DNA from: Bacteroidales bacterium
Lineage (GTDB): Bacteria > Bacteroidota > Bacteroidia > Bacteroidales > GCA-2711565
Reading direction: 5' to 3'
Assembly (NCBI GenBank): GCA_028280405.1
Contig: JANQLW010000016.1
Coordinates: 11,119-75,118 of the forward strand
Length of the DNA stretch: 64,000 nt
In this document: in pieces, positions 21,116 through 46,523 of the stretch
Layout of the letters: every line of letters begins with the position of its first letter
Position numbering within the stretch: position 1 is the stretch's first letter
Position numbers and translations under genes: made by a program
The notes under the pieces: model-generated
What the model was told of the DNA's origin: nothing
Databases searched by the model: none
The model's input: the letters and a program-made list of their open reading frames with translations, nothing else

Positions 21116-21745
21116 TTATTCCGTACCATGTGTTTTTACGAAGAATGCAACTTTTTCTAATGAAGTGATCATATCGTATTCTTCTAAATATACATGCTCA
21201 GGAACATTTACAGGCTTAGGGGTGTAATTTAATATACCCTTAATGCCTGACTCAACAAGTTTTCCTGAAATTTCCGGTGCAGAACCTGCAGGAACTGTAA
21301 TAATACCTATAGAAATTTCTTCCCTTTTTATGATATTTGCCAGTTCGTCGGTATGATAGCATTTTACTCCGGAAAATACACGGCCTACTTTATCAGGGTT
21401 GTTATCAAAAGCGGCAACTATAGATAACTTAGTTCTCTTGCCGTTAAAATAGTTAATCATCGCATGCCCCAGGTTCCCAATTCCGACAACAGCTACATTT
21501 AAACCATCCTTTGTATCAATAATATCACCTATAAGGTCTATTAATTCCTGAACATTATAGCCTTTTCTTAATGTGCCGGTATATCCGATCAACATAATAT
21601 CTCGTCGAACCTGTACCGGAGTAATATGCTGAATCTTTGCAATTTCATGAGAAAAAATATGGGTTTTCCCTTTTGCTGCACAAATTAGTAATGCTCTTCG
21701 GTACTGACTTAGTCTTTCAATCGTTTTGTGTGGTAGATGTTTCAT
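21116..21745 (-). CDS. rex: Redox-sensing transcriptional repressor Rex (paralog 1)
   Basis: 209 aa. N-terminal winged helix (RLSQYRR...VQVRRD) and Rossmann fold VAVVGIGNLGHA. Confidence 0.9.
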   Translation of the reverse strand: MKHLPHKTIERLSQYRRALLICAAKGKTHIFSHEIAKIQHITPVQVRRDIMLIGYTGTLRKGYNVQELIDLIGDIIDTKDGLNVAVVGIGNLGHAMINYFNGKRTKLSIVAAFDNNPDKVGRVFSGVKCYHTDELANIIKREEISIGIITVPAGSAPEISGKLVESGIKGILNYTPKPVNVPEHVYLEEYDMITSLEKVAFFVKTHGTE

Positions 21746-21820
21746 GCTGTCAAAATTAAGCTACGAACACTTTTGTCCGGCAAGCAAATTTAATTTTTGG
21801 ATACTTAAAATGCAAGAAAT

Positions 21821-21838
21821 TTGTTAATTATTTAACAT
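21821..21838. promoter_or_regulatory. Rex operator upstream of rex paralog 1
   Basis: TTGTTAATTATTTAACAT matches 17 of 18 positions of the TTGTTAA-N4-TTAACAA form of the Rex box. On the minus strand it lies 5 nt downstream of a TATTTTTG (TAnnTTTG) -7 box at 21844-21851 and about 76 nt upstream of the rex ATG. Confidence 0.6.
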
Positions 21839-21926: not shown

Positions 21927-22769
21927 TTATTTAAGTTGAGTTTTTAACCAGGTATACCATTTATCCATCCCTTCACCGGTTTTGACTGAAAGTTCAAAGA
22001 AGGTTAAATGATGATTTACTTTAAGTGCATATTCTTTTACCTTTTCAATATCAAAGTCAAGATGAGGTAAAAGGTCTGTTTTATTAATAACACAAATATC
22101 CGAAGTAGAAAACATATTTGGATACTTGATCGGTTTATCTTCGCCTTCTGTTGTGCTAATGACGACCACCCGTTTGGATTCTCCTAAATCAAACATTGAA
22201 GGACAAACCAAATTCCCTACATTTTCAATCATCAATGCTGCATAATCCTTTACTTCTAATTTTTTAACAGCTTTATTAATCATGTCAGCATCCAAATGGC
22301 ATCCATTCCCGGTATTTACCTGGACTACCGGCGCACCTGCCGATTCTATACGTTCAGCATCATTCATGGTTTGCTGATCTCCTTCAATCACATAAAAAGG
22401 AACTTCAGAACCAATTTCTTTTATTGTTCTTTCCAATAATGAAGTCTTACCCGAACCCGGTGAACTTACAAGATTTAATGCCAGGATATTTTTTGCTTCA
22501 AAATAACCTCTGTTTCTTTCAGCAAGAAGATTATTTTTATTTAAAACATTAATTTCAAGTTCAACCTCATGTGAATGATGATGATGGTGATGTGGATGGT
22601 CATGATCGTGAGTGTGATCATGTGGATGATCATGAGAATGACTGTGTCCATGATCGTGTGAGTGTTCATGGTCACCATGTGAGTGATCATGATTATGATG
22701 ATGTTCGTGTTGTTCTCCAGGTTTACTTATACGAACCTGATCGTCGCCGCAACCGCAAGTTCCGCACAT
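21927..22769 (-). CDS. hypB: Hydrogenase nickel-incorporation GTPase HypB (His-rich N-terminus)
   Basis: 280 aa. N-terminal MCGTCGCG followed by a long H/D-rich tract (HEHHHNHDHSHGDHEHSHDHGH...HHHHHHSH), then the G3E GTPase P-loop SSPGSGKTS. Confidence 0.95.
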   Translation of the reverse strand: MCGTCGCGDDQVRISKPGEQHEHHHNHDHSHGDHEHSHDHGHSHSHDHPHDHTHDHDHPHHHHHHSHEVELEINVLNKNNLLAERNRGYFEAKNILALNLVSSPGSGKTSLLERTIKEIGSEVPFYVIEGDQQTMNDAERIESAGAPVVQVNTGNGCHLDADMINKAVKKLEVKDYAALMIENVGNLVCPSMFDLGESKRVVVISTTEGEDKPIKYPNMFSTSDICVINKTDLLPHLDFDIEKVKEYALKVNHHLTFFELSVKTGEGMDKWYTWLKTQLK

Positions 22770-22784
22770 AATATTTCCTTTCTT

Positions 22785-23126
22785 TTAATCAAATTTAATT
22801 TTTCTGATTTTTAAATCTTTTCCGCTAATAATATTTGTTTCAAAGCTAGCACATTTCGGACAAACTGCAAAGAAATCATCTACTTCAAATTGATGAAAGC
22901 ATTTTTCGCAATTTGCTCTTGCCATAAGTTCTTTGAAATTTATCTTAGCATTTTGTGCAACGCCTTTTTTTACAGCTTCTTCCATTGCAAATTCCAAAGC
23001 TTCAATGATTACTCCTGACATAGATCCGATCTCAATATCAATTTCACTGATCGTTGATTTGTTGGCCTTTATTGCTTCTTCTTCTACAATCTCAACAATG
23101 TTTGTAGCTATAGATAATTCATGCAT
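22785..23126 (-). CDS. hypA: Hydrogenase nickel-insertion protein HypA
   Basis: 113 aa. N-terminal MHE nickel site and a zinc ribbon CEKC...CPKC. Confidence 0.95.
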   Translation of the reverse strand: MHELSIATNIVEIVEEEAIKANKSTISEIDIEIGSMSGVIIEALEFAMEEAVKKGVAQNAKINFKELMARANCEKCFHQFEVDDFFAVCPKCASFETNIISGKDLKIRKIKFD

Positions 23127-23333
23127 ATAAAACAGTACTGTTTGTCGTGAACAACAAAGGTAGTTAATCTTTAAACAATGCTAAAAAATTAACAGTAGTT
23201 TATTGAGTGAAAAACTGTTATTAATCATTATAATCGCTTTGTTTTCGGACTTTTATTTTGTATATTGGCTTATATGCAAATGATTTTGTGAGTCTGAGAT
23301 TTACTAACCCATAAAATATAAAAGGAGGCTTCA

Positions 23334-34042: not shown

Positions 34043-35059
34043 TTAACAAATTCGGGGTAGTTGTTCCCCTGCAAGCATATCAATAATTCGTTTGCCACCA
34101 ATTCCGGTTTCTATCCAGCCTTTCCCATGGTGCTCATCAACTATTTCTCCAATAATAGCAGCCTCTTTCCCTAATTCATTTGAATACATGATGTCAAGTA
34201 CTTTTTGGGCATCTTTTTCAGCAACAACCATCAATACCTTTCCTTCATTCGCAACATAAAGCGGATCGAAGCCCAGTAGTTCACACATACCTCTTACACT
34301 TTCCTTAACCACTAGATTTTCTTCTTTTATTTCCAGTCCGTAGTTTCTTTTATCTACTAATTCTGTTAATACTGTAGCTACACCACCTCTGGTAGCATCT
34401 CTCATGAATTTTACATTAGCACCACTATCAATTATATCTTTAATTAAATGATTTAAACAGGCACAATCAGATTGGATATTGGCTTGAATGTTTAAATCGT
34501 TTCGGGCACTCATAATGGTCATGCCATGATCGCCTATACTTCCGTTTATGATAATCTTGTCTCCAATATTTACTTTTTTTCCGGTACTAATGTGTAAGTT
34601 TTCAGCATCTAAAATTCCAATTCCGGATGTATTTATAAATACCTTATCAGCTTTTCCTTTATCTACGACTTTAGTATCTCCTGTAACAATTAATACATTT
34701 GCTTTTTTAGCTTCTTCTGCCATGGTTTTTACAATTTCTTCAAGGCGCTCCAGTGAGAACCCTTCTTCAATAATAAAACCTACAGAAATATATAAAGGCT
34801 TTGCACCACTTACAGCTAAATCATTTACTGTTCCGGCAATGGCTATTTTACCAATATTTCCTCCGGGGAAAAATATAGGGTCGACTACATAGGAATCGGT
34901 TGTATAAGAAATGTTTGTTGCATTTATTTCCAATAAAGCTGAATCCGTTTGTTTTCTTAAAATAGGATTGTCAAAATGTTTGACGAATATTTTACTAATT
35001 AAATCATGTGATAATTGTCCGCCGGACCCGTGGCCGAGAAGTACTTGTTTTTGTTTCAT
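34043..35059 (-). CDS. hypE: Hydrogenase maturation protein HypE
   Basis: 338 aa with the PurM-like fold and the diagnostic C-terminal ...PRIC. Confidence 0.95.
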   Translation of the reverse strand: MKQKQVLLGHGSGGQLSHDLISKIFVKHFDNPILRKQTDSALLEINATNISYTTDSYVVDPIFFPGGNIGKIAIAGTVNDLAVSGAKPLYISVGFIIEEGFSLERLEEIVKTMAEEAKKANVLIVTGDTKVVDKGKADKVFINTSGIGILDAENLHISTGKKVNIGDKIIINGSIGDHGMTIMSARNDLNIQANIQSDCACLNHLIKDIIDSGANVKFMRDATRGGVATVLTELVDKRNYGLEIKEENLVVKESVRGMCELLGFDPLYVANEGKVLMVVAEKDAQKVLDIMYSNELGKEAAIIGEIVDEHHGKGWIETGIGGKRIIDMLAGEQLPRIC

Positions 35060-35065
35060 TTTTTT

Positions 35066-35156
35066 GTTGCTGGTTACTGGTTACTGGTTGCTGGTTACTG
35101 GTTACTGGTTGCTGGTTGCTAGTTGGAATTAACCAGCAACCAGTAACTAGTAACTG
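35066..35156. repeat. Heptamer tandem array (GTTRCTG x8) followed by 3 inverted heptamers; forms a 24-bp hairpin
   Basis: gttgctg gttactg gttactg gttgctg gttactg gttactg gttgctg gttgcta ... cagcaac cagtaac tagtaac. Positions 35094-35117 pair with 35131-35154 (1 mismatch, 13-nt loop). The array fills the hypD-hypE spacer. Confidence 0.85.
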
Positions 35157-35207
35157 TATTTAATTATGTATTAATTATCTATTATTAGTTGAGGTATCAA
35201 AAATTTA

Positions 35208-36287
35208 CTATCGATTAAATCTGTAATAGGCATTACATGCTCCTTCATGAGAAACCATACATGCACCTACAGGATCATTCGGATTACAGGCTTTTCCAAA
35301 TAGTTTACAATCTTTAGGGTTTTTTAATCCTTTTAATATTTCTCCACAAATACAGCCTTTTTCCTCTTTTGTTTTTTCTACTTCAACAGGAATCATTATC
35401 TCGGCATCGTATGCTTTATATTTATCACGAATCTTCATTCCACTGGCGGGCAATACTCCTAAACCTCTCCACCAGTCGTCACGTAGTTCAAAAACTTCAT
35501 CCAGCATCTTCTGTGCTTTTTTATTCCCTTCAGCTCTAACCACTCTGCTGTATTCAATTTCTACATTATGATCTTCCGACTCTATTTGTTTTACCAACAT
35601 GAATATAGAACGAAGTAAATCGACAGGCTCAAATCCCGAAATAACAACTCCTAAATTATATTTTTCTGGTATATCCTTATATATCCCGGAACCTGTAATG
35701 GTACTAACATGACCAGGAGCAATGTAACCGTCTATTTTTACGCCTTCATCAATAAGTGCCCCCATAGCAGGTGGCATAATTTTATGAGAACTGAATAAGA
35801 AGAAGTTCTTAATTCCTTGGGCATGTGCATTAATTATTCCGACAGCACTGCTTGGTGCTGTTGTTTCAAACCCAATACCAAGGAATATAATTTTCTTATC
35901 AGAATTTTCTTTTGCAATTTTTAATGCATCCAATACGGAATATACAATTCTTACATCGGCCCCATTAGCTTTTTCCACATCTAATGAAGATGTTGACCCT
36001 GGTACTCTGATCAAATCTCCATAGGTTGTGATAATAACATCTGAAAGCCGGCTATAGGCTATTGCCTGATCTATGTATTTTCTGTCAGATACACAAACCG
36101 GACAACCTGGCCCTGAAACTAATTTTATATTATTCGGTAATAAACTTGGAATTCCAAATTTTTGGATAGACATAGTGTGCCCACCACAAACTTCCATCAA
36201 TCGGATTTCTTTTTTTGATATTTTTTTGATTTGTCTGGCTAATTCAAGAACTAACTCTTTGCTTCGGAATTCATCAATATATTTCAT
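35208..36287 (-). CDS. hypD: Hydrogenase maturation protein HypD
   Basis: 359 aa with the motifs MEVCGGHT, GPGCPVCV and the C-terminal Cys cluster. Confidence 0.95.
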   Translation of the reverse strand: MKYIDEFRSKELVLELARQIKKISKKEIRLMEVCGGHTMSIQKFGIPSLLPNNIKLVSGPGCPVCVSDRKYIDQAIAYSRLSDVIITTYGDLIRVPGSTSSLDVEKANGADVRIVYSVLDALKIAKENSDKKIIFLGIGFETTAPSSAVGIINAHAQGIKNFFLFSSHKIMPPAMGALIDEGVKIDGYIAPGHVSTITGSGIYKDIPEKYNLGVVISGFEPVDLLRSIFMLVKQIESEDHNVEIEYSRVVRAEGNKKAQKMLDEVFELRDDWWRGLGVLPASGMKIRDKYKAYDAEIMIPVEVEKTKEEKGCICGEILKGLKNPKDCKLFGKACNPNDPVGACMVSHEGACNAYYRFNR

Positions 36288-36303
36288 AGTTCGATTTTAG
36301 ATT

Positions 36304-36375
36304 CCGTCATGCTGAACTTGTTTCAGCATCTTATTAGTTAGCTACTTAGATGCCGAAACAAGTTCAGCATGACGG
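36304..36375. repeat. Two inverted copies of the REP-like element (27-nt arms, 1 mismatch)
   Basis: CCGTCATGCTGAACTTGTTTCAGCATC-(18 nt)-GATGCCGAAACAAGTTCAGCATGACGG lies in the hypC-hypD spacer. Each arm is itself a hairpin and matches the copy at 2396-2423. Confidence 0.85.
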
Positions 36376-36414
36376 GCTAGCTATTATTTAACGGACTAGT
36401 TAATATTATAAAGT

Positions 36415-36678
36415 TTATACTAATCTTTCTCCACTCTCTTTTTCCTCTTCATCCATTTGTTTATTGAGGCCTTCAAATTCCTCAAATACTTTTAAGGTTT
36501 CCAAAGCCTCTTCTTCACTGATTTTTTGGATAGCAAAGCCTGTATGCAATAGTATATAGTCACCGATGTTCACATCTTCGACCATTTGGAGGCTGGCATT
36601 GTATTGTGTTCCACCTACTGAAACCATTGCCATATCTCCTTCTATCTTTTCTACTTTAGCAGGAATACTTAAACACAT
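36415..36678 (-). CDS. hypC: Hydrogenase assembly chaperone HypC
   Basis: 87 aa with the diagnostic N-terminal MCLSIPAKV. Confidence 0.95.
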   Translation of the reverse strand: MCLSIPAKVEKIEGDMAMVSVGGTQYNASLQMVEDVNIGDYILLHTGFAIQKISEEEALETLKVFEEFEGLNKQMDEEEKESGERLV

Positions 36679-36734
36679 AACTCTATTTTTTATTGATTAT
36701 TTATTATTGAATATTAATAATCGATAATCATTTA

Positions 36735-39017
36735 TCAATAATCAATATCATTTTGTTCTCTTAATTTTGCTGCAATCGCTAATTGTCCAAGGGCCAGACT
36801 ACCATCATTGGATGGTGTATTCAGGTGTGAATAAACCTTAAAGCCTTTTCTAGACAAGAGATTTTCTGTTTTTTCCAATAGATATCGGTTTTGAAAACTT
36901 CCCCCTGATAAAACAACTTTATTGATTCCTCTCTCAGATTTTAGTTTGTCAGCGACTGCAAAAATAATATTAATAATAGTATTGTGGAATTTTGTACTGA
37001 TAAATCCCTGGCTTATCCCCTTATTTAGATCAGTTAGTATTTCATCAAAACATAATTTTAGGCCTATACTATCATTCATGGTGAATTTATAATGATCGTC
37101 GGTTTCTAAATTAATAGCTGCTTCCAGCCTCATTGGGGCTTCTGCATGAAAGCTTGCTTTAGTACAAAGATTAACCAAAGCAGAAACAGCATCAAAGAGT
37201 CTTCCACAACTTGAAGTTTCAGGGCAATTTAAGTTTTTGTCGAGCATATCCAGAATGAGATTTAATTCGAATTCCGGGATATTTTTTAAAAACTCCATAT
37301 TATTCCAATCGAACTTTCTTCCATAAAATTTGTGAAGATAACTAACTGCCATTCGCCATGGATTTTTAGTGGCTTGATCTCCGCCCGGCATTTTTACATA
37401 ATCAAAATATGTGATTCGTTCATATTTGGCTAAGTCGCAGATAAAAAATTCTCCGCCCCATATTTTATGATCATTCCCCAGTCCAACTCCATCAAAAGCA
37501 ACCCCAATAACCGCTTCATCTAATTTATGCTCAGCCATACATGATGCGATATGAGCATGGTGATGTTGTATAGCTATTTTAGGAATAATGTTCTGTTCCA
37601 ATGCATATTTAGTTGATAGATAGTCTGGGTGTAGGTCATGTGCTATTAAAGTGGGTTTTAATCTAAATAGTTTTTTAAATCTTTCTATAGACTCAGAATA
37701 GAACTCAAGTGTTTCCAGATTTTTTAAATCCCCAATATGTTGACTTAAAATTGCCTGCTTGCCTTTTCCAAGTGCAAAACAATTTACCAATTCAGCTCCT
37801 GTTGCAAAGATCCCTTCTGTATTTAAGTTGAGATGTACCGGGTTTGGAACATAACCTCTGGATCTTCTTATAAGCCTGTGTTTTTTATTAGTCACAAAAG
37901 CAACAGAGTCATCTGTCCTGTTGTGGATATCTCTATTATAGGTTAAAATGGCATCTGTTATTTCTGAGAATTGCTTAATTGCTTCTTCATTGTTGATTAT
38001 AATAGGTTCGTCTGAAATGTTGCCACTTGTTAAAACGATTGTATTTAGTGTTAAGTTTTCAAATAATTGAAAATGAAATGGCATATAAGGTAACATTACT
38101 CCTACCGAATCGAAGCCCATGGATACGCCTGGTGCAAGCTTTCTGCTGTTCTTTAATAATACAATGGGTTTTCTCCAGGATGTAAGTAGATCAATCTCTT
38201 CAGAAGTGGGAGAGGAGATCTCTTTTAGTGCCTTTATGTTTCTGCACATTACGGCAAAGGGTTTTCCATCCCTGTTCTTGAGGTTTCTTAAACGCTCAAC
38301 CGCATGCTGATTAGTTGCGTCACATGCTAAGTGAAAGCCTCCCATGCCTTTTATTGCAAGGATTTTACCTTCCTTTAAATATTGAGCTGTTAGATTCAAT
38401 ATAAGATTAAAATCTTCAATAATTTCGTTATTAATAATTAGGCTGTATTGTGGCCCGCAAGTGTTGCAGGCAACAGGTTGTGCATGAAACCTTCTATCTA
38501 ATATATCTGTATATTCCCCATTACAAATATTGCACATTTTAAATGGGGCCATACTCGTCATTTCTCTGTCGTAAGGCAAATCTTTGATAATCGTAAATCG
38601 TGGGCCACAGTTGGTACAATTGATAAATGGATATTCAATTCTGTGCGGCTGAGTTTTTAAATCTTCGATACACTCTTTACAGACCGAAATATCCGGACTG
38701 ACCTCAGTGATGTCATCCGATTTGTTTTCGCTCTTTATAATTGAGAATTCTGAAAACTTTTCCAAAGGAATATCATCAGTTTGAATAGAAGTAATATTAG
38801 ATGCTTGTGGAGCTTCAAGTTGAATAGCACTGATGAACTTTTCTATGACTTTCGTTTTTCCTTCTGCTTTTATGAATACTCCATCATTACTGTTCTCCAC
38901 CCAGCCATTTAAATTGTATCTGCAAGCCAAGCGATAGATGTAAGGCCTGAAACCAACACCCTGAACCAATCCCTGGATATGTATGTATTTATTTGTGATT
39001 TTATCCTTCTTACTCAT
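36735..39017 (-). CDS. hypF: Carbamoyltransferase HypF
   Basis: 760 aa. It has the acylphosphatase-like N-terminus (IQGLVQGVGFRP), two zinc-finger CxxC pairs, and YrdC-like and Kae1-like domains. Confidence 0.95.
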   Translation of the reverse strand: MSKKDKITNKYIHIQGLVQGVGFRPYIYRLACRYNLNGWVENSNDGVFIKAEGKTKVIEKFISAIQLEAPQASNITSIQTDDIPLEKFSEFSIIKSENKSDDITEVSPDISVCKECIEDLKTQPHRIEYPFINCTNCGPRFTIIKDLPYDREMTSMAPFKMCNICNGEYTDILDRRFHAQPVACNTCGPQYSLIINNEIIEDFNLILNLTAQYLKEGKILAIKGMGGFHLACDATNQHAVERLRNLKNRDGKPFAVMCRNIKALKEISSPTSEEIDLLTSWRKPIVLLKNSRKLAPGVSMGFDSVGVMLPYMPFHFQLFENLTLNTIVLTSGNISDEPIIINNEEAIKQFSEITDAILTYNRDIHNRTDDSVAFVTNKKHRLIRRSRGYVPNPVHLNLNTEGIFATGAELVNCFALGKGKQAILSQHIGDLKNLETLEFYSESIERFKKLFRLKPTLIAHDLHPDYLSTKYALEQNIIPKIAIQHHHAHIASCMAEHKLDEAVIGVAFDGVGLGNDHKIWGGEFFICDLAKYERITYFDYVKMPGGDQATKNPWRMAVSYLHKFYGRKFDWNNMEFLKNIPEFELNLILDMLDKNLNCPETSSCGRLFDAVSALVNLCTKASFHAEAPMRLEAAINLETDDHYKFTMNDSIGLKLCFDEILTDLNKGISQGFISTKFHNTIINIIFAVADKLKSERGINKVVLSGGSFQNRYLLEKTENLLSRKGFKVYSHLNTPSNDGSLALGQLAIAAKLREQNDIDY

Positions 39018-39169: not shown

Positions 39170-39787
39170 ATGAAATTACCAAAGAGAACTGTTCAGCGAT
39201 TAAGCCGTTATCGTAGGTTGCTATTTAAATACCGATATTTATCAGAGCCTTATATTTACTCTCATGATTTGGCAAGGTTGCTAAATCTTAACCCTGTTCA
39301 GGTGAGACGCGATTTAATGCTGATTGGAAGTTCAGGTAATCACCGAAAGGGGTATAATGTAAACGAACTGAATGATCTAATCGCTAATACTATAGATAGT
39401 TCTGAAGTTCAAAATGTAGGTATTGTTGGAATAGGTCGGCTAGGCCAGGCCATTTTGAATTATGTTTCTGATCAGGAAATGAATTTAAAAGTTGCCGCAG
39501 TTTTTGATATTGATAATAAAAAGGTAGGCAAAGAGTATGGAGATATTATGTGTTATGATATAAGCCGTATGTCGGAAATCGTGTTAGAAAAGAATATCTC
39601 TATTGGCATTATTGCCATACCTTCCGAATTTGCTACTTCAATAGCTGATATCCTTTTAAGATCCGGAATGGAAGGTATTCTTAATTTTACTAATGTGCAC
39701 CTGGATTTACCTAAGCATATTTACCTGAAAGAATTTGATATTATTACTACCCTCGAGGAAATGGCATATTTTGTGAAAAATAAGTAG
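39170..39787 (+). CDS. rex: Redox-sensing transcriptional repressor Rex (paralog 2)
   Basis: 205 aa. RLSRYRR...VQVRRD winged helix and Rossmann fold VGIVGIGRLGQA. It lies directly upstream of hoxF. Confidence 0.9.
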   Translation: MKLPKRTVQRLSRYRRLLFKYRYLSEPYIYSHDLARLLNLNPVQVRRDLMLIGSSGNHRKGYNVNELNDLIANTIDSSEVQNVGIVGIGRLGQAILNYVSDQEMNLKVAAVFDIDNKKVGKEYGDIMCYDISRMSEIVLEKNISIGIIAIPSEFATSIADILLRSGMEGILNFTNVHLDLPKHIYLKEFDIITTLEEMAYFVKNK

Positions 39788-40015
39788 AAATACCTGTAGC
39801 AAGTAATTTTACCTTATTTAGAAAATAGGTATGATAATTATCATTTAAGAGAAAAAATATGTGTGTTCTTATTCTGTTATTTATTCCCAAAGTGCTGTGA
39901 TGTATAGTGTCATATACTTTCTAATAATATCATGCTTCTTTTTATTTATTTAAACCTTTTCTAAATATCGACCTTTCTTTTATATATTAGGTAAAAACAC
40001 TTAATTTTGTGTCGT

Positions 40016-40033
40016 TTGTTAATTAATTAACAA
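40016..40033. promoter_or_regulatory. Perfect Rex operator at the hoxF promoter
   Basis: TTGTTAATTAATTAACAA is a perfect 18-bp palindrome identical to the TTGTTAA-N4-TTAACAA Rex consensus. It lies 6 nt downstream of a TAATTTTG -7 box (40002-40009) and 50 nt upstream of the hoxF ATG. Confidence 0.7.
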
Positions 40034-40083
40034 ATTAGATTGCTAACAATTCAATTAAGGTATATTAAAAACAAAATTAATTT

Positions 40084-41877
40084 ATGAGAACTACTGTAAA
40101 AAGCATTATTGAGAAATACAATAATGATAAAACCAGATTAATGGACATTTTAATTGATGTTCAGAAGGAATTCGGTTTTATACCTGATGAAGCTGTTGAG
40201 GTTATTGCTGAAGGTTGTGGTTTATCAAAAGTGGATGTTAATCAGACACTTTCGTTTTACCACTTCTTTACAAAGAAACCTGTAGGCGAATATGCCGTTT
40301 ATCTTAACAACAGCGCAGTAGCTGAAATGAAAGGCTTTGCAAGTGTTGCCAAAGCATTCGAAGAAGAAGCCGGATGCGCATTTGGTGAAGTTACCGAAGA
40401 CGGTAAAATTGGATTACACGAAACCGCTTGTATCGGTATGAGTGACCAGGAGCCAGCAGCTATTATTAACAATGTTGTATTTACCAATCTTACTCCCGCC
40501 AAAGTTAAAGAGATTGTTGGCCAGATGAAAGCTGGTAAAGATGTTAAAGAAATGATCTCTGCAAAAGGAGATGGAAAAAATGCGAATGAATTAATCAATG
40601 CTGAGGTATTTAACAATATTCGTAAAAAAGGTGAAGTTATTTTCTCAGATTACGAAATTGGTACTGCTTTGAAAAAGCTTGGTACCATGAATCCTGAAGA
40701 AGTAATTGATGAGGTAAAAGCTTCTTATGTGCGTGGTAGAGGTGGAGCTGGTTTCCCTACAGGCTTAAAATGGGAATTCTGCCGTAAATCGGAAGGTACA
40801 CGTTATGTGCTTTGTAATGCTGATGAAGGTGAACCAGGTACTTTTAAAGAAAGAGTAATCTTAACAGAGGTTCCTAAATTATTATTTGAAGGTATGGCTG
40901 TTTGTGGCTATGCGATCGGTTCTAAAGTAGGGATTCTTTATTTAAGATATGAATATAAATATTTGGAAGCTTATCTTGAAAATGTGCTTGCAGAAATGAG
41001 AGCTTCTAATTTATTAGGAAAAAATATTCAGGGAATTGAAGGATTTGATTTTGATGTCAGAATTCAATTTGGAGGTGGAGCTTATGTTTGTGGTGAAGAA
41101 TCTGCATTGATAGAATCTGCGGAAGGTAAACGCGGTGAACCACGTAACCGTCCTCCATTCCCGGTACAAAAAGGATATATGGATTCTCCAACTGTTGTAA
41201 ATAATGTGGAAACTCTTTGTTCAATTGTTAAAATTATGAATAAAGGTTCTGAATGGTTTACGATGATGGGTTCACGTGAAAGTGCAGGTACTAAATTATT
41301 AAGTATTTCCGGAGATTGTAAATATCCAGGTGTATATGAAATTGAATGGGGCTTGAGAGTAAGAGATATGCTTGAAATGGTTGGTGCCGAAGATGTCCAA
41401 GCTGTACAAGTTGGCGGACCTTCAGGCGTAATGATTGGCCCTAAAGATTTTAAACGTACTATTTGTTTTGAAGATCTTCCAACAGGTGGTTCGATCATGA
41501 TTTTCAATAACGAACGTAAACTGATAGAAGATGTTGTTACTAATTTCACTGATTTCTTCATTGAAGAGTCCTGTGGATCTTGTGTTCCTTGTCGTGCAAT
41601 CACCGTTTTATTACGTCAAAGACTTCAAAAAATTATTGATGGTAATGGTGTAATGAGTGATATTGATGAGTTAAAAGACTGGGCTGAAAAACTGAAAGTT
41701 GCCAATCGTTGTGGATTAGGCCAAACTGCAGGTGCTCCGGTATTAACCACTATCGAGAATTTCCGCGATAAATATGAAGCACTTGTGCAAAAAGATATTG
41801 ACTTTGATTCAGGATTTGATTTGGAAGCTTCAGTTCAGGCTTCTTGTGCATTCGTTGACAGAACTCCAAATTTATAA
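40084..41877 (+). CDS. hoxF: NAD(P)-reducing hydrogenase diaphorase subunit HoxF (NuoE-like + NuoF-like fusion)
   Basis: 597 aa with NADH/FMN site GRGGAGFPTGLKWEF and 4Fe-4S ESCGSCVPCR. The N-terminal NuoE-like part has lost most 2Fe-2S Cys ligands (VYLNNSAVAEMKG..ETACIGMSDQEPA). Confidence 0.9.
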   Translation: MRTTVKSIIEKYNNDKTRLMDILIDVQKEFGFIPDEAVEVIAEGCGLSKVDVNQTLSFYHFFTKKPVGEYAVYLNNSAVAEMKGFASVAKAFEEEAGCAFGEVTEDGKIGLHETACIGMSDQEPAAIINNVVFTNLTPAKVKEIVGQMKAGKDVKEMISAKGDGKNANELINAEVFNNIRKKGEVIFSDYEIGTALKKLGTMNPEEVIDEVKASYVRGRGGAGFPTGLKWEFCRKSEGTRYVLCNADEGEPGTFKERVILTEVPKLLFEGMAVCGYAIGSKVGILYLRYEYKYLEAYLENVLAEMRASNLLGKNIQGIEGFDFDVRIQFGGGAYVCGEESALIESAEGKRGEPRNRPPFPVQKGYMDSPTVVNNVETLCSIVKIMNKGSEWFTMMGSRESAGTKLLSISGDCKYPGVYEIEWGLRVRDMLEMVGAEDVQAVQVGGPSGVMIGPKDFKRTICFEDLPTGGSIMIFNNERKLIEDVVTNFTDFFIEESCGSCVPCRAITVLLRQRLQKIIDGNGVMSDIDELKDWAEKLKVANRCGLGQTAGAPVLTTIENFRDKYEALVQKDIDFDSGFDLEASVQASCAFVDRTPNL

Positions 41878-41897: not shown

Positions 41898-42728
41898 ATG
41901 AGTATCTTCAAAAAAATATTCGGTAGAAAATCTTCAAAACCAAAAGTTGTGGAGATTGAAAAAGAAGAAGTTACTGTGGAAGACAAAAAAATAATAGTAG
42001 AAGAAAAAGAAATAAAAAATAAAACAATGAGCGAAAAAATAAAATTTACAATAGACGGCAAAGAATGTCTTGCGGAAAGAGGACAGAATGTTCTTGACGC
42101 TGCTTTGGACAATGGGATTTATATCCCATATCTATGTCATGTCAGAGGTGTAAAACAAGCTGGTTCATGTCGTGTTTGTAATGTAAAAGTTGCCGGCCGT
42201 ACCATGACCGCCTGTACTACTCCGGTAGCTCCCGGAATGGAAGTTGAAAACAACACTGCTGAATTACGTGAACTTCGTTTAACCATTATCGAAGCCCTAT
42301 TCGTAGAAGGAAATCACTTCTGTCCTTCATGTGAAAAAAGTGGTAATTGCGAATTACAGGCGTTAGCCTATCATTATCAAATGATGGTGCCACGTTTCCC
42401 TTATGCATTCCCACAGAAAAAAGTTGAAGCTGATAATTCAAAAATATTAATTGACCGTAATCGTTGTGTATTATGTAAACGTTGTATCCGTTCATTTAAA
42501 GATGAAAACGGAAAGAGTTACTTTGCATTTACGAAAAGGGGCCATAAACTTGAAATCAGTATGGATAAAGAAATAGCTGCAAACCTTACTGATGAAAAAG
42601 CTCAGGAAATTATGGATACTTGTCCTGTAGGTGCCCTTATCAAGAAAGAAAAAGGATTTGACGAGCCAATTGGAAGTCGTAAATTTGACAAACAGGCAAT
42701 TGGTAGTGATATTAAAAGCGTTGTTTAA
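41898..42728 (+). CDS. hoxU: Hydrogenase diaphorase Fe-S subunit HoxU (NuoG N-terminal-like)
   Basis: Fe-S cluster motifs CHVRGVKQAGSCRVCNV, HFCPSCEKSGNCELQ, CVLCKRCIR and CPVGAL. The first 43 residues are a K/E-rich extension, and an alternative start at 42027 (MSEKIKFTIDGKE) would give a canonical length. Confidence 0.85.
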   Translation: MSIFKKIFGRKSSKPKVVEIEKEEVTVEDKKIIVEEKEIKNKTMSEKIKFTIDGKECLAERGQNVLDAALDNGIYIPYLCHVRGVKQAGSCRVCNVKVAGRTMTACTTPVAPGMEVENNTAELRELRLTIIEALFVEGNHFCPSCEKSGNCELQALAYHYQMMVPRFPYAFPQKKVEADNSKILIDRNRCVLCKRCIRSFKDENGKSYFAFTKRGHKLEISMDKEIAANLTDEKAQEIMDTCPVGALIKKEKGFDEPIGSRKFDKQAIGSDIKSVV

Positions 42729-42752: not shown

Positions 42753-43301
42753 ATGAGTAAAGCAATAGTTGCAACAACATCATTAGCAGGCTGCTTCGGA
42801 TGCCATATGTCACTACTTGACATCGACGAAAGAATTCTTAAACTTATCGAATTGGTTGAGTTTAATAAATCTCCGATTGACGATATCAAAACTTTCACAA
42901 AACAATGTGATGTAGGTTTGATCGAAGGCGGTTGCTGTAATAGTGAAAATGTTCACGTATTAAAAGAATTTAGAAAAAACTGTAAAATATTAATCTCTGT
43001 AGGAGAATGTGCAATCATGGGTGGTCTTCCGGCTATGCGTAATAATATTCCTGTTGAAGAATGTATTCAGGAAGCATATCTTGACGGGCCTACTGTTGGA
43101 AACAACACTGATAAAATTCTTCCGAATGATGATGAACTTCCAATGATTCTTGATAAAGTTTATCCTTGTCATGAAATCGTGAAGATTGATTATCATCTTC
43201 CAGGTTGTCCTCCACGTGCGGACTTATTATGGGAGGCTTTAGTTGCGCTTCTTACTGGAAATGAATTGAAATTACCTTACGAAGTTGTTAAATTTGATTA
43301 A
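42753..43301 (+). CDS. hoxY: [NiFe]-hydrogenase small subunit HoxY (group 3 type)
   Basis: 182 aa with proximal-cluster motifs LAGCFGCHMSLLD, GECAIMGG and LPGCPP. Confidence 0.9.
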   Translation: MSKAIVATTSLAGCFGCHMSLLDIDERILKLIELVEFNKSPIDDIKTFTKQCDVGLIEGGCCNSENVHVLKEFRKNCKILISVGECAIMGGLPAMRNNIPVEECIQEAYLDGPTVGNNTDKILPNDDELPMILDKVYPCHEIVKIDYHLPGCPPRADLLWEALVALLTGNELKLPYEVVKFD

Positions 43302-43313
43302 AAAGAAAAGAAA

Positions 43314-44765
43314 ATGGCAAAAAAGATAACTATAGAACCTGTAACCAGAGTAGAAGGCCACGGTAAAGTGACCATTCACTTGGATGATAACGGACAAGTT
43401 ACACAGAGTCGTTTACATATTGTTGAGTTTAGAGGATTTGAACGCTTTGTACAAGGTCGCCCTTACTGGGAAGCTCCGGTATTAGTTCAACGTCTTTGTG
43501 GTATTTGCCCGGTATCTCACCATCTTGCTGCTGCGAAAGCATTAGATGTTATCGTTGGAGCTGGTACCGGTGAAGGATTAACTCCTACTGGAGAGAAAAT
43601 GCGTCGTTTGATGCATTACGGACAAATGTTCCAATCGCATGCACTTCACTTTTTCCACTTAGTATCTCCGGATTTACTATTTGGAATTGATGCAGATCCT
43701 GCAATCAGAAATGTAATTGGCGTTGCCCAAAAGTTCCCGGATCTTGCAGTTCAAGGTGTGATGATGCGTAAATACGGACAGGAAATTATTAAAGCTACCG
43801 CAGGTAAGAAAATCCACGGTACCGGTGCAATTCCTGGTGGTATCAACAAACACTTAACTGAAGAAGAAAAACAAAGCTTCTTAAACGGGCCAGATCCAAT
43901 GAACATCGATAAGATGATTGAATGGTCGCATGCCGCACTTGAATTATTCAAAGGCTATCATAAAGAAAATGCAGGATTGATTGATTCATTCGCAGCATTT
44001 GATTCTAGTCACTTATCATTAGTTCGTAAAGATGGTGCATTAGACCTTTATCATGGTGTTCTTAGAGCAGTAGACAAAGATGGTAACAAAATTCTTCATG
44101 ATGTAGATTATCAGGATTATCTGAAATATATTGGCGAAGAAGTACGTGACTGGTCATATATGAAATTCCCTTACTTATTAGAGTATGGTAAAGAAAACGG
44201 TTGGTATAGAGTAGGTCCTTTAGCTCGTTTAAATACTTGTGACTTTATTCCAACTCCATTAGCTCAAAAAGAGTTTGAAATTTATAAAGCTTACACAAAC
44301 GGTAAGCCAAATAATATGTCAATGCATATGCACTGGGCTCGCTTGATCGAGATTTTACACTCAGCTGAGATGATGAAAGAATTATTGAATGATCCTGACT
44401 TACTCAAAGGTGACCTTGTTACTAAAGGTGAAAAACAAAGCGAAGGTGTTGGTTTAATTGAAGCTCCTCGTGGAACTTTATTCCACCACTATGAAGTAAA
44501 CAAAGATGATCAGATTACGATGGCTAACTTAATTGTGTCTACTACCAATAACAATGAACCAATGAACTTAGCTGTTCGCAAAGTAGCTGAAGATCAAATG
44601 ACCGGACAAGCGGAAATTACCGAAGGTATGATGAATGCATGTGAAGTTGCTATCCGTGCTTATGACCCATGCCTAAGTTGTGCGACTCACGCATTAGGTA
44701 AAATGCCTCTTGAAATGTCCCTTTATGACGCTAAAGGAAACTTAGTTGATAAGAAAAGATCATAA
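43314..44765 (+). CDS. hoxH: [NiFe]-hydrogenase large subunit HoxH
   Basis: 483 aa. The N-terminal RLCGICPVSH and C-terminal DPCLSCATH motifs are the Ni-Fe ligands. They are followed by a 24-aa tail, which is the protease-cleaved extension. Confidence 0.95.
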   Translation: MAKKITIEPVTRVEGHGKVTIHLDDNGQVTQSRLHIVEFRGFERFVQGRPYWEAPVLVQRLCGICPVSHHLAAAKALDVIVGAGTGEGLTPTGEKMRRLMHYGQMFQSHALHFFHLVSPDLLFGIDADPAIRNVIGVAQKFPDLAVQGVMMRKYGQEIIKATAGKKIHGTGAIPGGINKHLTEEEKQSFLNGPDPMNIDKMIEWSHAALELFKGYHKENAGLIDSFAAFDSSHLSLVRKDGALDLYHGVLRAVDKDGNKILHDVDYQDYLKYIGEEVRDWSYMKFPYLLEYGKENGWYRVGPLARLNTCDFIPTPLAQKEFEIYKAYTNGKPNNMSMHMHWARLIEILHSAEMMKELLNDPDLLKGDLVTKGEKQSEGVGLIEAPRGTLFHHYEVNKDDQITMANLIVSTTNNNEPMNLAVRKVAEDQMTGQAEITEGMMNACEVAIRAYDPCLSCATHALGKMPLEMSLYDAKGNLVDKKRS

Positions 44766-44793
44766 ATTGATTAACCTCAATTAGATTGTACAA

Positions 44794-44842
44794 ACAGGTT
44801 GCAAATGATAGGATAATTCCTGAAATTGCAGCCTGTTTTTTT
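44794..44842 (+). terminator. Rho-independent terminator after hoxH
   Basis: ACAGGTTGCAA-(21 nt)-TTGCAGCCTGT forms an 11 bp stem including one G-U pair, followed by TTTTTTT. It starts 29 nt after the hoxH stop. Confidence 0.65.
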
Positions 44843-44928
44843 AGTTTGAAGCATAGGGCTTGCAGCCTGTAGCTTTATTTAATTTAGAATTATTATAAAT
44901 AAACTAATTATTTTATTAAATTTGATAT

Positions 44929-45417
44929 ATGAAAATATTACTATACGGATATGGTAATCCCGGTAGACAAGATGATGGTTTAGGAAATGTTTTTATTGAC
45001 AGAATTGAAGAATGGATCAAAAAACAAGGAATTGAAGGGATTGAATTAGATAGTAATTACCAACTAAATATAGAAGATGCAGAAGCGATATCCGGTAAGG
45101 ATCTTGCAATTTTTATTGATGCATCGGTAGAGGATATTGAAGACTATTGTATCTCGAAGGTGACCGAATCTTCGGAAATTACATATACAACTCATGCAGC
45201 TTCTCCCGGCTATATCGTGGATTTGTGTAAACAAATTTATGGAAAAGCTCCGGTAACCTATTTAGTACATATTAAAGGAGTTGAATGGGCTTTTAAAGAA
45301 GGGCTTACTGAAAAAGCAGTCTCTCATTTGGAAATGGCTTTGGAGGCAATTAAGCCGTTTTTATTAAACCCACAACCTTTAATAGACGGAACTGCAGAAT
45401 ATAAAACCTGTAATTAA
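44929..45417 (+). CDS. hoxW: Hydrogenase maturation endopeptidase (HoxW/HycI family)
   Basis: 162 aa with the N-terminal motif LLYGYGNPGRQDDGLG typical of the family. Confidence 0.85.
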   Translation: MKILLYGYGNPGRQDDGLGNVFIDRIEEWIKKQGIEGIELDSNYQLNIEDAEAISGKDLAIFIDASVEDIEDYCISKVTESSEITYTTHAASPGYIVDLCKQIYGKAPVTYLVHIKGVEWAFKEGLTEKAVSHLEMALEAIKPFLLNPQPLIDGTAEYKTCN

Positions 45418-45548: not shown

Positions 45549-46523
45549 ATGGATTTATCTGTTAATTATATGGGGATTGCCCTGAAAAATCCAATTTTGG
45601 TTGGTAGTTCTAAACTGACTGCTTCCTTTGAAAGCATCAAAAAATGCATCGAACATGGTGCAGGTGCCATTGTCCTGAAATCAATTTTTGAAGAGCAATT
45701 ACTTACAAATGTAGATAAGTTGCTGGAACAGGATGATAAGTATGTATATTATCCCCAGGCAATCGATTATATTAATACTTATGCAAAATACCAGGGTGTT
45801 AAAGAATATATAGATCTTATTAAAAAAGTAAGGTCTTATTCTGATGTTCCCTTAATAGCAAGTATAAATTGTGTGAGTGCTGATGAATGGCCTTCGTTTT
45901 CCAGACAGTTCGAACAAGCTGGTGTTAATGGTATTGAATTAAATATTGCCATTTCCCCTTTTGATACAGAATATGATAGTGCTCAGATTGAGCAAATTTA
46001 TGTAGACATTGTTAGGGAAGTGAAAAAACATACTTCTGTTCCGGTAGCCGTAAAAATCGGTAATTACTTTACGAATGTCGGCCATATTACAAAAAGGTTG
46101 GTAGAGGCAGGAGCTGATGCGTTGGTTTTATTTAATCGTTTTTACAGACCGGATATTAATATTGACCGGGCAGAGATTATTAATGATAATTTTCTAAGCG
46201 GCCCTCAGGAAATTTCTCAATCATTAAGATGGGTCGCTTTATTGTCTAATAAACTGAATTGCAGTATAGCAGCCAGTACCGGAATACATGATTACGTTGG
46301 AGTCGTTAAGCAAATCATGGCTGGTGCAGATACTGTTCAATTGTGCTCTGCTTTGTATAATAAAGGAACCGGTTATATGGACACCTTACTGTTGGATTTG
46401 AAAAAATGGATGCATAAGAACAACTATAAATCTATAGATGATTTTAAGTCTAAGGTGTCTGCCAATGATGAATATTCCGAAGCTTTTAAAAGAATTCAAT
46501 ATATGAAGCGTAGCATTGAGTAG
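45549..46523 (+). CDS. Dihydroorotate dehydrogenase-like FMN TIM-barrel protein
   Basis: 324 aa. N-terminal MGIALKNPILVGSS and the fold pattern resemble class-1 DHOD/PreA. The region equivalent to the catalytic LNxSCPN reads ELNIAISPF, so it is non-canonical. Confidence 0.8.
   Translation: MDLSVNYMGIALKNPILVGSSKLTASFESIKKCIEHGAGAIVLKSIFEEQLLTNVDKLLEQDDKYVYYPQAIDYINTYAKYQGVKEYIDLIKKVRSYSDVPLIASINCVSADEWPSFSRQFEQAGVNGIELNIAISPFDTEYDSAQIEQIYVDIVREVKKHTSVPVAVKIGNYFTNVGHITKRLVEAGADALVLFNRFYRPDINIDRAEIINDNFLSGPQEISQSLRWVALLSNKLNCSIAASTGIHDYVGVVKQIMAGADTVQLCSALYNKGTGYMDTLLLDLKKWMHKNNYKSIDDFKSKVSANDEYSEAFKRIQYMKRSIE

Follow-up and report, generated by a model that had tools for sequence, protein, structure and literature searches.

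Organization of the hox gene cluster

The window analyzed here, a 64-kb stretch of DNA (64,000 nucleotides) from a Bacteroidales bacterium, contains the genes hoxFUYH of a Hox-type [NiFe] hydrogenase, which are followed by a hairpin and a protease-like gene:

40084..41877, + strand, hoxF, 597 aa, fusion of a NuoE-like 2Fe-2S part and a NuoF-like FMN/NADH-binding diaphorase (PF01257, PF01512 and PF10589)
41898..42728, + strand, hoxU, NuoG-like Fe-S subunit (HoxU model NF005745 below cut-off)
42753..43301, + strand, hoxY, [NiFe] hydrogenase small subunit (PF01058)
43314..44765, + strand, hoxH, [NiFe] hydrogenase large subunit with a C-terminal extension
44792..44842, + strand, probable intrinsic terminator, a hairpin with a U-run directly after hoxH
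44929..45417, + strand, hoxW-like maturation protease gene, 162 aa (TIGR00072, 45.4 bits, just under the cut-off of 47.45)

Homologues of HoxF are annotated as "[NiFe] hydrogenase diaphorase moiety large subunit", and a diaphorase module consisting of the HoxE-F fusion and HoxU is encoded beside the hydrogenase dimer, with HoxY. This agrees with the initial annotation, which had predicted an NAD-reducing hydrogenase downstream of the promoter; hoxF encodes the NuoE+NuoF-type diaphorase subunit of a Hox-type [NiFe] hydrogenase. The hoxU ORF codes for 276 aa when read from its first ATG and the protein has 233 aa in most orthologues; translation probably begins at the ATG at 42027 instead, which would give 233 aa. 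In HoxH, both Ni-Fe ligand (CxxC) motifs are present (RLCGICPVSH and DPCLSCATH), and its orthologues carry precomputed matches to PF27537 (HoxH). The best solved relative of HoxH is a soluble NAD-reducing hydrogenase (5XF9_D, E 1e-161), followed by the bifurcating NiFe-HydABCSL enzyme (7T2R). With a bifurcating enzyme in second place, the use of NAD(H) by the Hox enzyme, as opposed to NADP(H) or bifurcation, is a prediction.

The hairpin after hoxH has a predicted stability of -23.5 kcal/mol (z -4.95), a value reached in none of 200 shuffles, and a similar hairpin sequence was found again in four of the related loci compared below (L081, L083, L084 and L086). It had been passed over by a simple terminator scan with a loop limit of 8 nt, its loop being longer than 8 nt. 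It is probable that this hairpin ends the hoxFUYH transcript and separates the protease-like gene from it. It was also noticed that a dihydroorotate-dehydrogenase-like gene (45549-46523; NF005741, 385 bits) is located after the hox cluster, and that such a gene also follows hox in L087 (from 9090) and L088 (from 9075), two relatives whose HoxF is about 70% identical.

Promoter and candidate Rex operator upstream of hoxF

Two closely spaced elements were located between rex2 and hoxF:

40002..40009, + strand, -7 element TAATTTTG, match to the Bacteroidota primary-sigma motif TAnnTTTG
40016..40033, no strand assigned, predicted Rex operator, perfect 18-bp inverted repeat TTGTTAATTAATTAACAA

This arrangement, in which TAATTTTG is followed after 6 nt by a perfect 18-bp palindrome, had been described in the initial annotation and was confirmed, the 6-nt spacer being TGTCGT. 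The palindrome reaches 20 bp (40015-40034) when one further base on each side is included. The Rex box begins 229 nt after rex2, and the hoxF ATG at 40084 lies about 50-51 nt downstream of its end. As quoted from Ravcheev 2012 in PMC5367854, the clostridial-type Rex consensus is TTGTTAA-N4-TTAACAA. The general consensus is TTGTGAA-N4-TTCACAA. The operator is an exact match to the clostridial variant and deviates from the general consensus at two symmetric positions, so that the earlier statement that both half-sites are perfect holds against the former but not against the latter.

Since the window has a GC content of 34%, AT-rich palindromes are a concern; the statistics exclude a chance match. 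The degenerate Rex consensus TTGTKAANNNNTTMACAA has a single exact match in the 64-kb window, compared with a mean of 0.01 expected from 100 dinucleotide-preserving shuffles. With a position weight matrix trained solely on orthologous sites of other genomes (n = 15 sites), the hoxF box scored 26.3 bits. None of the 15 training sites scores as high, and the best score across 50 local shuffles of the window was 18.1 bits. Further candidates in the window, at 23160 and 23177 (upstream of hypA), 19996, 62416 and 761, scored 10-12 bits, as does noise in shuffled sequence, and were rejected; a full Rex box was likewise sought in the hypF-rex2 spacer, where only a half-site was found.

The primary sigma factor of Bacteroidota recognizes TAnnTTTG around position -7, a motif present before 81% of the primary start sites of B. 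thetaiotaomicron, whereas certain species have only a weak -33 motif or none, and it was not recovered in F. johnsoniae (PMC7366714). At hoxF, no -33 TTTG was found 19-21 nt upstream of the -7 box. A scan of the rex2-hoxF spacer for sigma-70 promoters, a type of scan that excludes Bacteroidota-type promoters, gave nothing above shuffle expectation. From the position of the -7 box, we infer that transcription starts a few nucleotides past it, on the left edge of the operator. In most orthologous loci the gap between TAnnTTTG and the Rex box downstream of it is 0-7 nt, so that the predicted operator would span the start site every time, and an operator over the start site would be in the classical position for steric repression. 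A scan of the rex2-hoxF spacer found no terminator, and hence transcripts running on from rex2 could circumvent such control or make it more complex.

A separate TAAATTTG box precedes the ATG of the hoxW-like gene by 5 nt, and both the gene and this box-to-ATG layout are kept in orthologues. It was noticed that, at the hoxW-like gene (44915-44931) and at rex1 (21745-21760, minus strand), TAnnTTTG precedes the ATG by only 3-5 nt, a distance suggesting that both give rise to leaderless or near-leaderless transcripts. The near-leaderless -7 layout before the 162-aa gene is kept in four relatives (L081, L083, L084 and L086).

Two Rex paralogues and the hyp genes

The window contains two rex genes, each accompanied by hydrogenase maturation genes:

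39170..39787, + strand, rex2, 205 aa (PF06971 and PF02629), directly upstream of the operator
21116..21745, - strand, rex1, 209 aa (PF06971 and PF02629), downstream of hypA-hypB
34043..39017, - strand, hypF-hypC-hypD-hypE maturation genes, divergent from rex2
21927..23126, - strand, hypA-hypB nickel-insertion genes, upstream of rex1
21821..21838, no strand assigned, another strong Rex box, TTGTTAATTATTTAACAT, with 1 mismatch, located 75 nt before the rex1 ATG

The initial annotation had counted on two Rex proteins, and both were found to be encoded full-length in the window, one of them directly upstream of the box. Rex1 and Rex2 are 45% identical and share the same domain layout, with a winged-helix DNA-binding domain at the N terminus and a Rossmann NAD(H)-binding domain at the C terminus. 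Both scored above the NCBIfam cut-offs with the models covered end to end, namely NF003995 (194 and 197 bits, cut-off 126), NF003996 (181 and 180 bits, cut-off 138) and NF003994 (155 and 172 bits, cut-off 130). Rex2 gave a full-length alignment to B. subtilis Rex (2VT2, E 2e-34), and against the solved Rex structures 2VT2, 3KEO and 1XCB it aligned end to end with E values from 2e-34 to 1e-23.

The recognition helix PVQVRRD is identical in Rex1 and Rex2, and the counterpart of its VRRD in the alignment is R50-R51 of S. agalactiae Rex, in which this Arg-Arg pair contacts the two guanines of the half-site (PMC8376106). The equivalent of the wing residue Arg62, which makes a minor-groove contact in S. 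agalactiae Rex, is displaced, an R-K pair being located two residues later. Both proteins have kept the GxGxxG motif (GIGRLG and GIGNLG), and in the NAD(H) pocket the Phe-Asp pair is invariant in the alignment. Because the contact residues of the recognition helices are identical, the sequence does not discriminate between Rex1 and Rex2 as the protein that would act at hoxF.

The box upstream of rex1 scored 19.5 bits, more than the maximum of 18.1 bits in 50 shuffles, and is the only other strong box in the window; it is a probable autoregulatory site as judged from its sequence and position. Thus rex1 has a strong Rex box of its own in the window, whereas rex2 does not. The box upstream of hypA is weak (10.2 bits) and at noise level. 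As a side observation, both rex genes of the window are physically tied to hydrogenase genes.

Conservation of the Rex box among hoxF loci

A HoxF profile scan with one genome per species yielded 80 loci, and exact-protein look-ups added 8 loci from closer relatives with 70-80% HoxF identity; since L081 and L082 have the same protein, these represent seven distinct relatives. In total, 88 hoxF loci from other genomes (773 kb), referred to by L numbers, were compared. The order rex-hoxFUYH and the protease-like gene are kept in all seven distinct closest relatives retrieved. A rex gene is located directly upstream of hoxF in L081-L088, L002 and L014, and it adjoins hoxF also in L036 and L037.

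Exact consensus boxes occur 13 times in the 88 loci, 12 of them at most 200 nt upstream of hoxF and the thirteenth 18 nt upstream of a rex gene. The core TGTKA-N6-TMACA is present at 1.0 per kb upstream of hoxF versus 0.009 per kb elsewhere, an enrichment of about 100-fold. Boxes of at least 14 bits were found upstream of hoxF in 20 loci, all belonging to a Bacteroidota-type clade with a HoxF identity of about 57% or more, and in these approximately 20 other genomes the box lies at -41 to -128 relative to hoxF. In L087 and L088 a full Rex box is also present upstream of rex.

Comparison of orthologous hoxF upstream regions, which the initial annotation had put forward as a check, revealed that the pair of -7 box and Rex box is kept despite diverged flanks. 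In the alignment, the rex-hoxF spacer is diverged except for three islands, i.e., a TTCTAAAT element (see below), TAnnTTTG and the Rex box, and in the closest relatives the Rex box follows 2-6 nt after the -7 box. Within the box, the half-sites are invariant in this alignment and the central 4 nt vary (TTAA, AAGT, TAAA, AGAA, AGTT and AAAA); fixed half-sites around a free center are the signature of a site for a dimeric protein. Among the Bacteroidota sites, the left halves are a mixture of TTGTG and TTGTT, and the right halves are mostly TTAACAA. The nearest match among genome contigs (L001, 72% HoxF identity) has kept the -7 box together with a degenerate half-site only, and no Rex box was found in five further Bacteroidota hoxF loci (L004, L012, L015, L018 and L028). 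The link between Rex box and hoxF is therefore common but not universal.

Several variants of this layout were noticed. A weaker Rex-like box, TTGATAATTTATTCACAA (14-17 bits), is situated just past the rex2 stop codon in L083 (3712-3729), L086 (3714-3731) and L084 (about 3709); no box of this type is recognizable at the matching place in the window. In three loci, a divergent Rex-like gene (about 30% identity, helix SLVRKDF) is the first gene of the hox operon, right before hoxF:

L007, 3342-3989, divergent rex-like gene
L008, 3347-3964, divergent rex-like gene
L011, 3334-3981, divergent rex-like gene

Just upstream of the start of the rex-like gene there is a variant box, ATGTTATAATCGTAACAT in L008 and TTGTTACGATTATAACAT in L011, in which the TGTTA-N6-TAACA core is unchanged and positions 7 and 12 are altered. 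The combination of a variant box with a divergent Rex-like protein may represent co-variation of protein and operator. In two loci from spirochaete MAGs (L036, -87; L037, -214), a divergently oriented rex lies beside hoxF, with weaker core boxes in the spacer, and a Goldbacteria locus (L026) has a core box at -31 relative to hoxF. Judging from these sequences, the link between Rex and Hox may reach beyond Bacteroidota.

Another conserved element in the hoxF promoter

The remaining conserved island in the spacer upstream of hoxF is as follows:

39949..39966, + strand, conserved element TTTAAACCTTTTCTAAAT, consensus ATTTAWAA-N3-TTCTAAAT

In the window, 42-43 nt separate the first base of TTCTAAAT from that of the -7 box downstream. 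The element was found in 15 of the 20 hoxF promoters that bear a Rex box, its carriers being the window, L002, L006, L009, L010, L013, L014, L023, L081 and L083-L088. Measured from start to start, TTCTAAAT and the -7 box are 42-44 nt apart in 13 of these 15 promoters, with a distance of exactly 42 nt prevailing; unlike this fixed spacing, the gap between -7 box and Rex box floats from 0 to 7 nt. The version in L002 is a perfect 7-3-7 palindrome, TTTAGAATAATTCTAAA. We know of no motif that matches ATTTAWAA-N3-TTCTAAAT; by its sequence and spacing, it may be the site of a second regulator or an UP-like element, and it is the best candidate for something undescribed at the hoxF promoter. A second copy of TTCTAAAT, in the hoxH-hoxW gap (44882-44899), is not conserved in orthologues and was treated as a chance occurrence.

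Proposed control of hoxFUYH and alternative explanations

Taken with the neighboring genes, the palindrome is most likely a functional Rex operator that would place hoxFUYH, encoding a soluble NAD-linked Hox-type [NiFe] hydrogenase, under NADH/NAD+ control. When the NADH/NAD+ ratio is low, a Rex dimer would bind TTGTTAA-N4-TTAACAA and hoxFUYH would be off; the acting Rex would most economically be the product of the adjacent rex2, possibly together with that of rex1. With the operator lying 6 nt past the -7 box, the bound Rex would cover the predicted start and block initiation by RNA polymerase carrying the primary sigma factor. Upon build-up of NADH, binding of NADH to the Rossmann domain would close the dimer, DNA would be released, and hoxFUYH would be transcribed up to the terminator after hoxH. 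The Hox enzyme, if it runs in this direction in vivo, would then re-oxidize NADH with evolution of H2 and exert negative feedback on the NADH/NAD+ ratio. As the metabolite sensed would be the enzyme's own substrate, the feedback loop would be direct.

A palindrome arising by chance has to be considered in a 34% GC genome, the region being very AT-rich and TTAATTAATTAA being of low complexity, but this explanation is effectively refuted by the shuffles (0.01 expected per window) and by the comparative data, in which some 20 other genomes have kept the position while differing in the central bases, and the core is enriched about 100-fold upstream of hoxF; its probability is negligible. A role as nucleic-acid structure, either a hairpin in the 5' leader RNA or a DNA cruciform, is very improbable. 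The perfect 20-nt palindrome can fold in principle and is paired in the centroid fold, but the leader fold of -6.4 kcal/mol (z -0.65) is no better than that of shuffled sequences and an Rfam search of the leader gave no match. Moreover, the two halves of orthologous sites often differ (TTGTGAA...TTAACAA in L002, L006, L019 and L009), an asymmetry that breaks a base pair while staying inside the degenerate Rex consensus and thus argues against a structural role.

If a protein is the ligand, it could be a dimeric regulator other than Rex, such as one of the Crp/Fnr family. Rex and classical CRP sites share the core TGTGA-N6-TCACA, so that TGTKA-N6-TMACA taken alone would suit a CRP-like site, and from the second conserved element upstream it is probable that the promoter is the target of one or more other factors. 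Against this, rex adjoins hoxF in every close relative examined as well as in L002, L014, L036 and L037, the bases specific to the Rex consensus (TT/AA at the outer ends, A/T at positions 7 and 12) are conserved, and equivalent boxes precede rex genes (rex1 of the window, L087 and L088), as autoregulation by Rex would give; we regard a Crp/Fnr-type regulator as quite unlikely. It is unlikely, too, that Rex binds but follows a non-classical logic, in which only one paralogue acts, different nucleotides are sensed, heterodimers are formed or Rex fine-tunes an operon driven by the upstream element. Such behavior would fit with paralogues that are only 45% identical and both linked to hydrogenase genes, with the presence of a box at rex1 and its absence at rex2 in the window, and with the phasing of the upstream element relative to the -7 box; however, the PVQVRRD helix and the motifs of the NAD(H) site are the same in both paralogues, and there is no sequence sign of a different ligand.

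Classical control by Rex might also be one part of a larger arrangement. We tentatively suggest, as a possibility with less in its favor than the Rex operator itself, that the hoxF promoter is a two-input switch within a Rex module dedicated to hydrogenase. Rex2 would then be the local paralogue that travels with hox and gates the start site, a second factor would bind the palindrome-like ATTTAWAA-N3-TTCTAAAT at the fixed distance of 42 nt from the -7 box, and Rex1 would control its own gene and belong with hypAB. The loci with a divergent Rex-like gene (L007, L008 and L011) and those from spirochaete MAGs show variants of such a layout. If this is true, Bacteroidota would have an architecture of their own for regulating H2 metabolism, in which a cis element and a partner not described so far take part.

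Relation to known Rex and hox systems

Rex (YdiH) and its operator ROP in Firmicutes and Actinobacteria (B. subtilis, S. aureus, S. coelicolor and S. agalactiae) resemble the system predicted here in that the protein has the same two domains, the operator is an 18-bp inverted repeat of 7-4-7 geometry located in the promoter, the target is an NADH-consuming enzyme, and rex1 of the window looks autoregulated. Unlike in those systems, 1) the promoter has the Bacteroidota TAnnTTTG -7 box instead of sigma-70 -10/-35 elements, 2) the half-site is TTGTTAA instead of TTGTGAA, and 3) two paralogues are present, both physically linked to hydrogenase genes. The window site is identical to the clostridial-type consensus TTGTTAANNNNTTAACAA (Ravcheev 2012, as quoted in PMC5367854), but the host belongs to Bacteroidota and not to Clostridia.

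Control of hydrogenases by Rex has been reported or predicted elsewhere: 1) in Caldicellulosiruptor bescii, Rex represses the genes of [FeFe] and membrane-bound [NiFe] hydrogenases, as validated by EMSA (PMC6391272), 2) in Caldithrix abyssi, a rex-hydrogenase cluster with a Rex box has been predicted (PMC5317091), and 3) in Parageobacillus, control of Ni-CODH/ECH by Rex has been predicted (PMC13077300). As in these cases, Rex would repress H2-evolving enzymes until NADH rises, which for hoxFUYH is proposed here from sequence, and as in Caldithrix, rex adjoins the hydrogenase genes. Those three systems involve bifurcating hydrogenases of the [FeFe] type or membrane-bound [NiFe] hydrogenases of group 4, whereas the enzyme of the window is predicted to be a soluble Hox-type (group 3d-like) [NiFe] hydrogenase with direct use of NAD(H).

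Bidirectional or NAD-reducing [NiFe] hydrogenases of this class also occur in Cupriavidus and cyanobacteria. The hox genes of Cupriavidus are regulated by HoxA/HoxJ/HoxBC. Those of cyanobacteria are controlled by LexA, CyAbrB1/2 and RpaA (PMC13421787). The enzyme class is thus shared, but these regulators are wholly different from Rex and none of them is known to sense NADH/NAD+ directly. The author of the initial annotation was not aware of NADH-responsive repression of an NAD-reducing hydrogenase having been demonstrated in Bacteroidota; likewise, the literature searched yielded no paper about what Rex does in Bacteroidota or about Rex together with a group-3d Hox enzyme, which is not proof of novelty.

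Rex control of hydrogenases is already established in Firmicutes, and the rex-hox case is a well-supported further example of a known redox switch that would not surprise a specialist. To our knowledge, Rex has been studied almost solely in Gram-positive bacteria, and the regulation of H2 metabolism in anaerobic Bacteroidota is essentially uncharted. The present locus offers a simple testable model, in which build-up of NADH would turn on an NADH-oxidizing, H2-evolving valve in fermentative Bacteroidales of sediments and digesters, and a predicted pair of NADH-responsive promoter and repressor ready for Bacteroidota genetics. It is useful for annotation and leaves the understanding of Rex or of Hox enzymes unchanged.

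It was also noticed that the representative of the 90%-identity cluster containing Rex1 (P0122/P0123) has been deposited as "Clostridia bacterium" on a 3.7-kb MAG contig. This label is probably due to mis-binning; taken together with the clostridial-type box, a Clostridia-labelled Rex1 representative makes a lateral origin of the rex genes possible.
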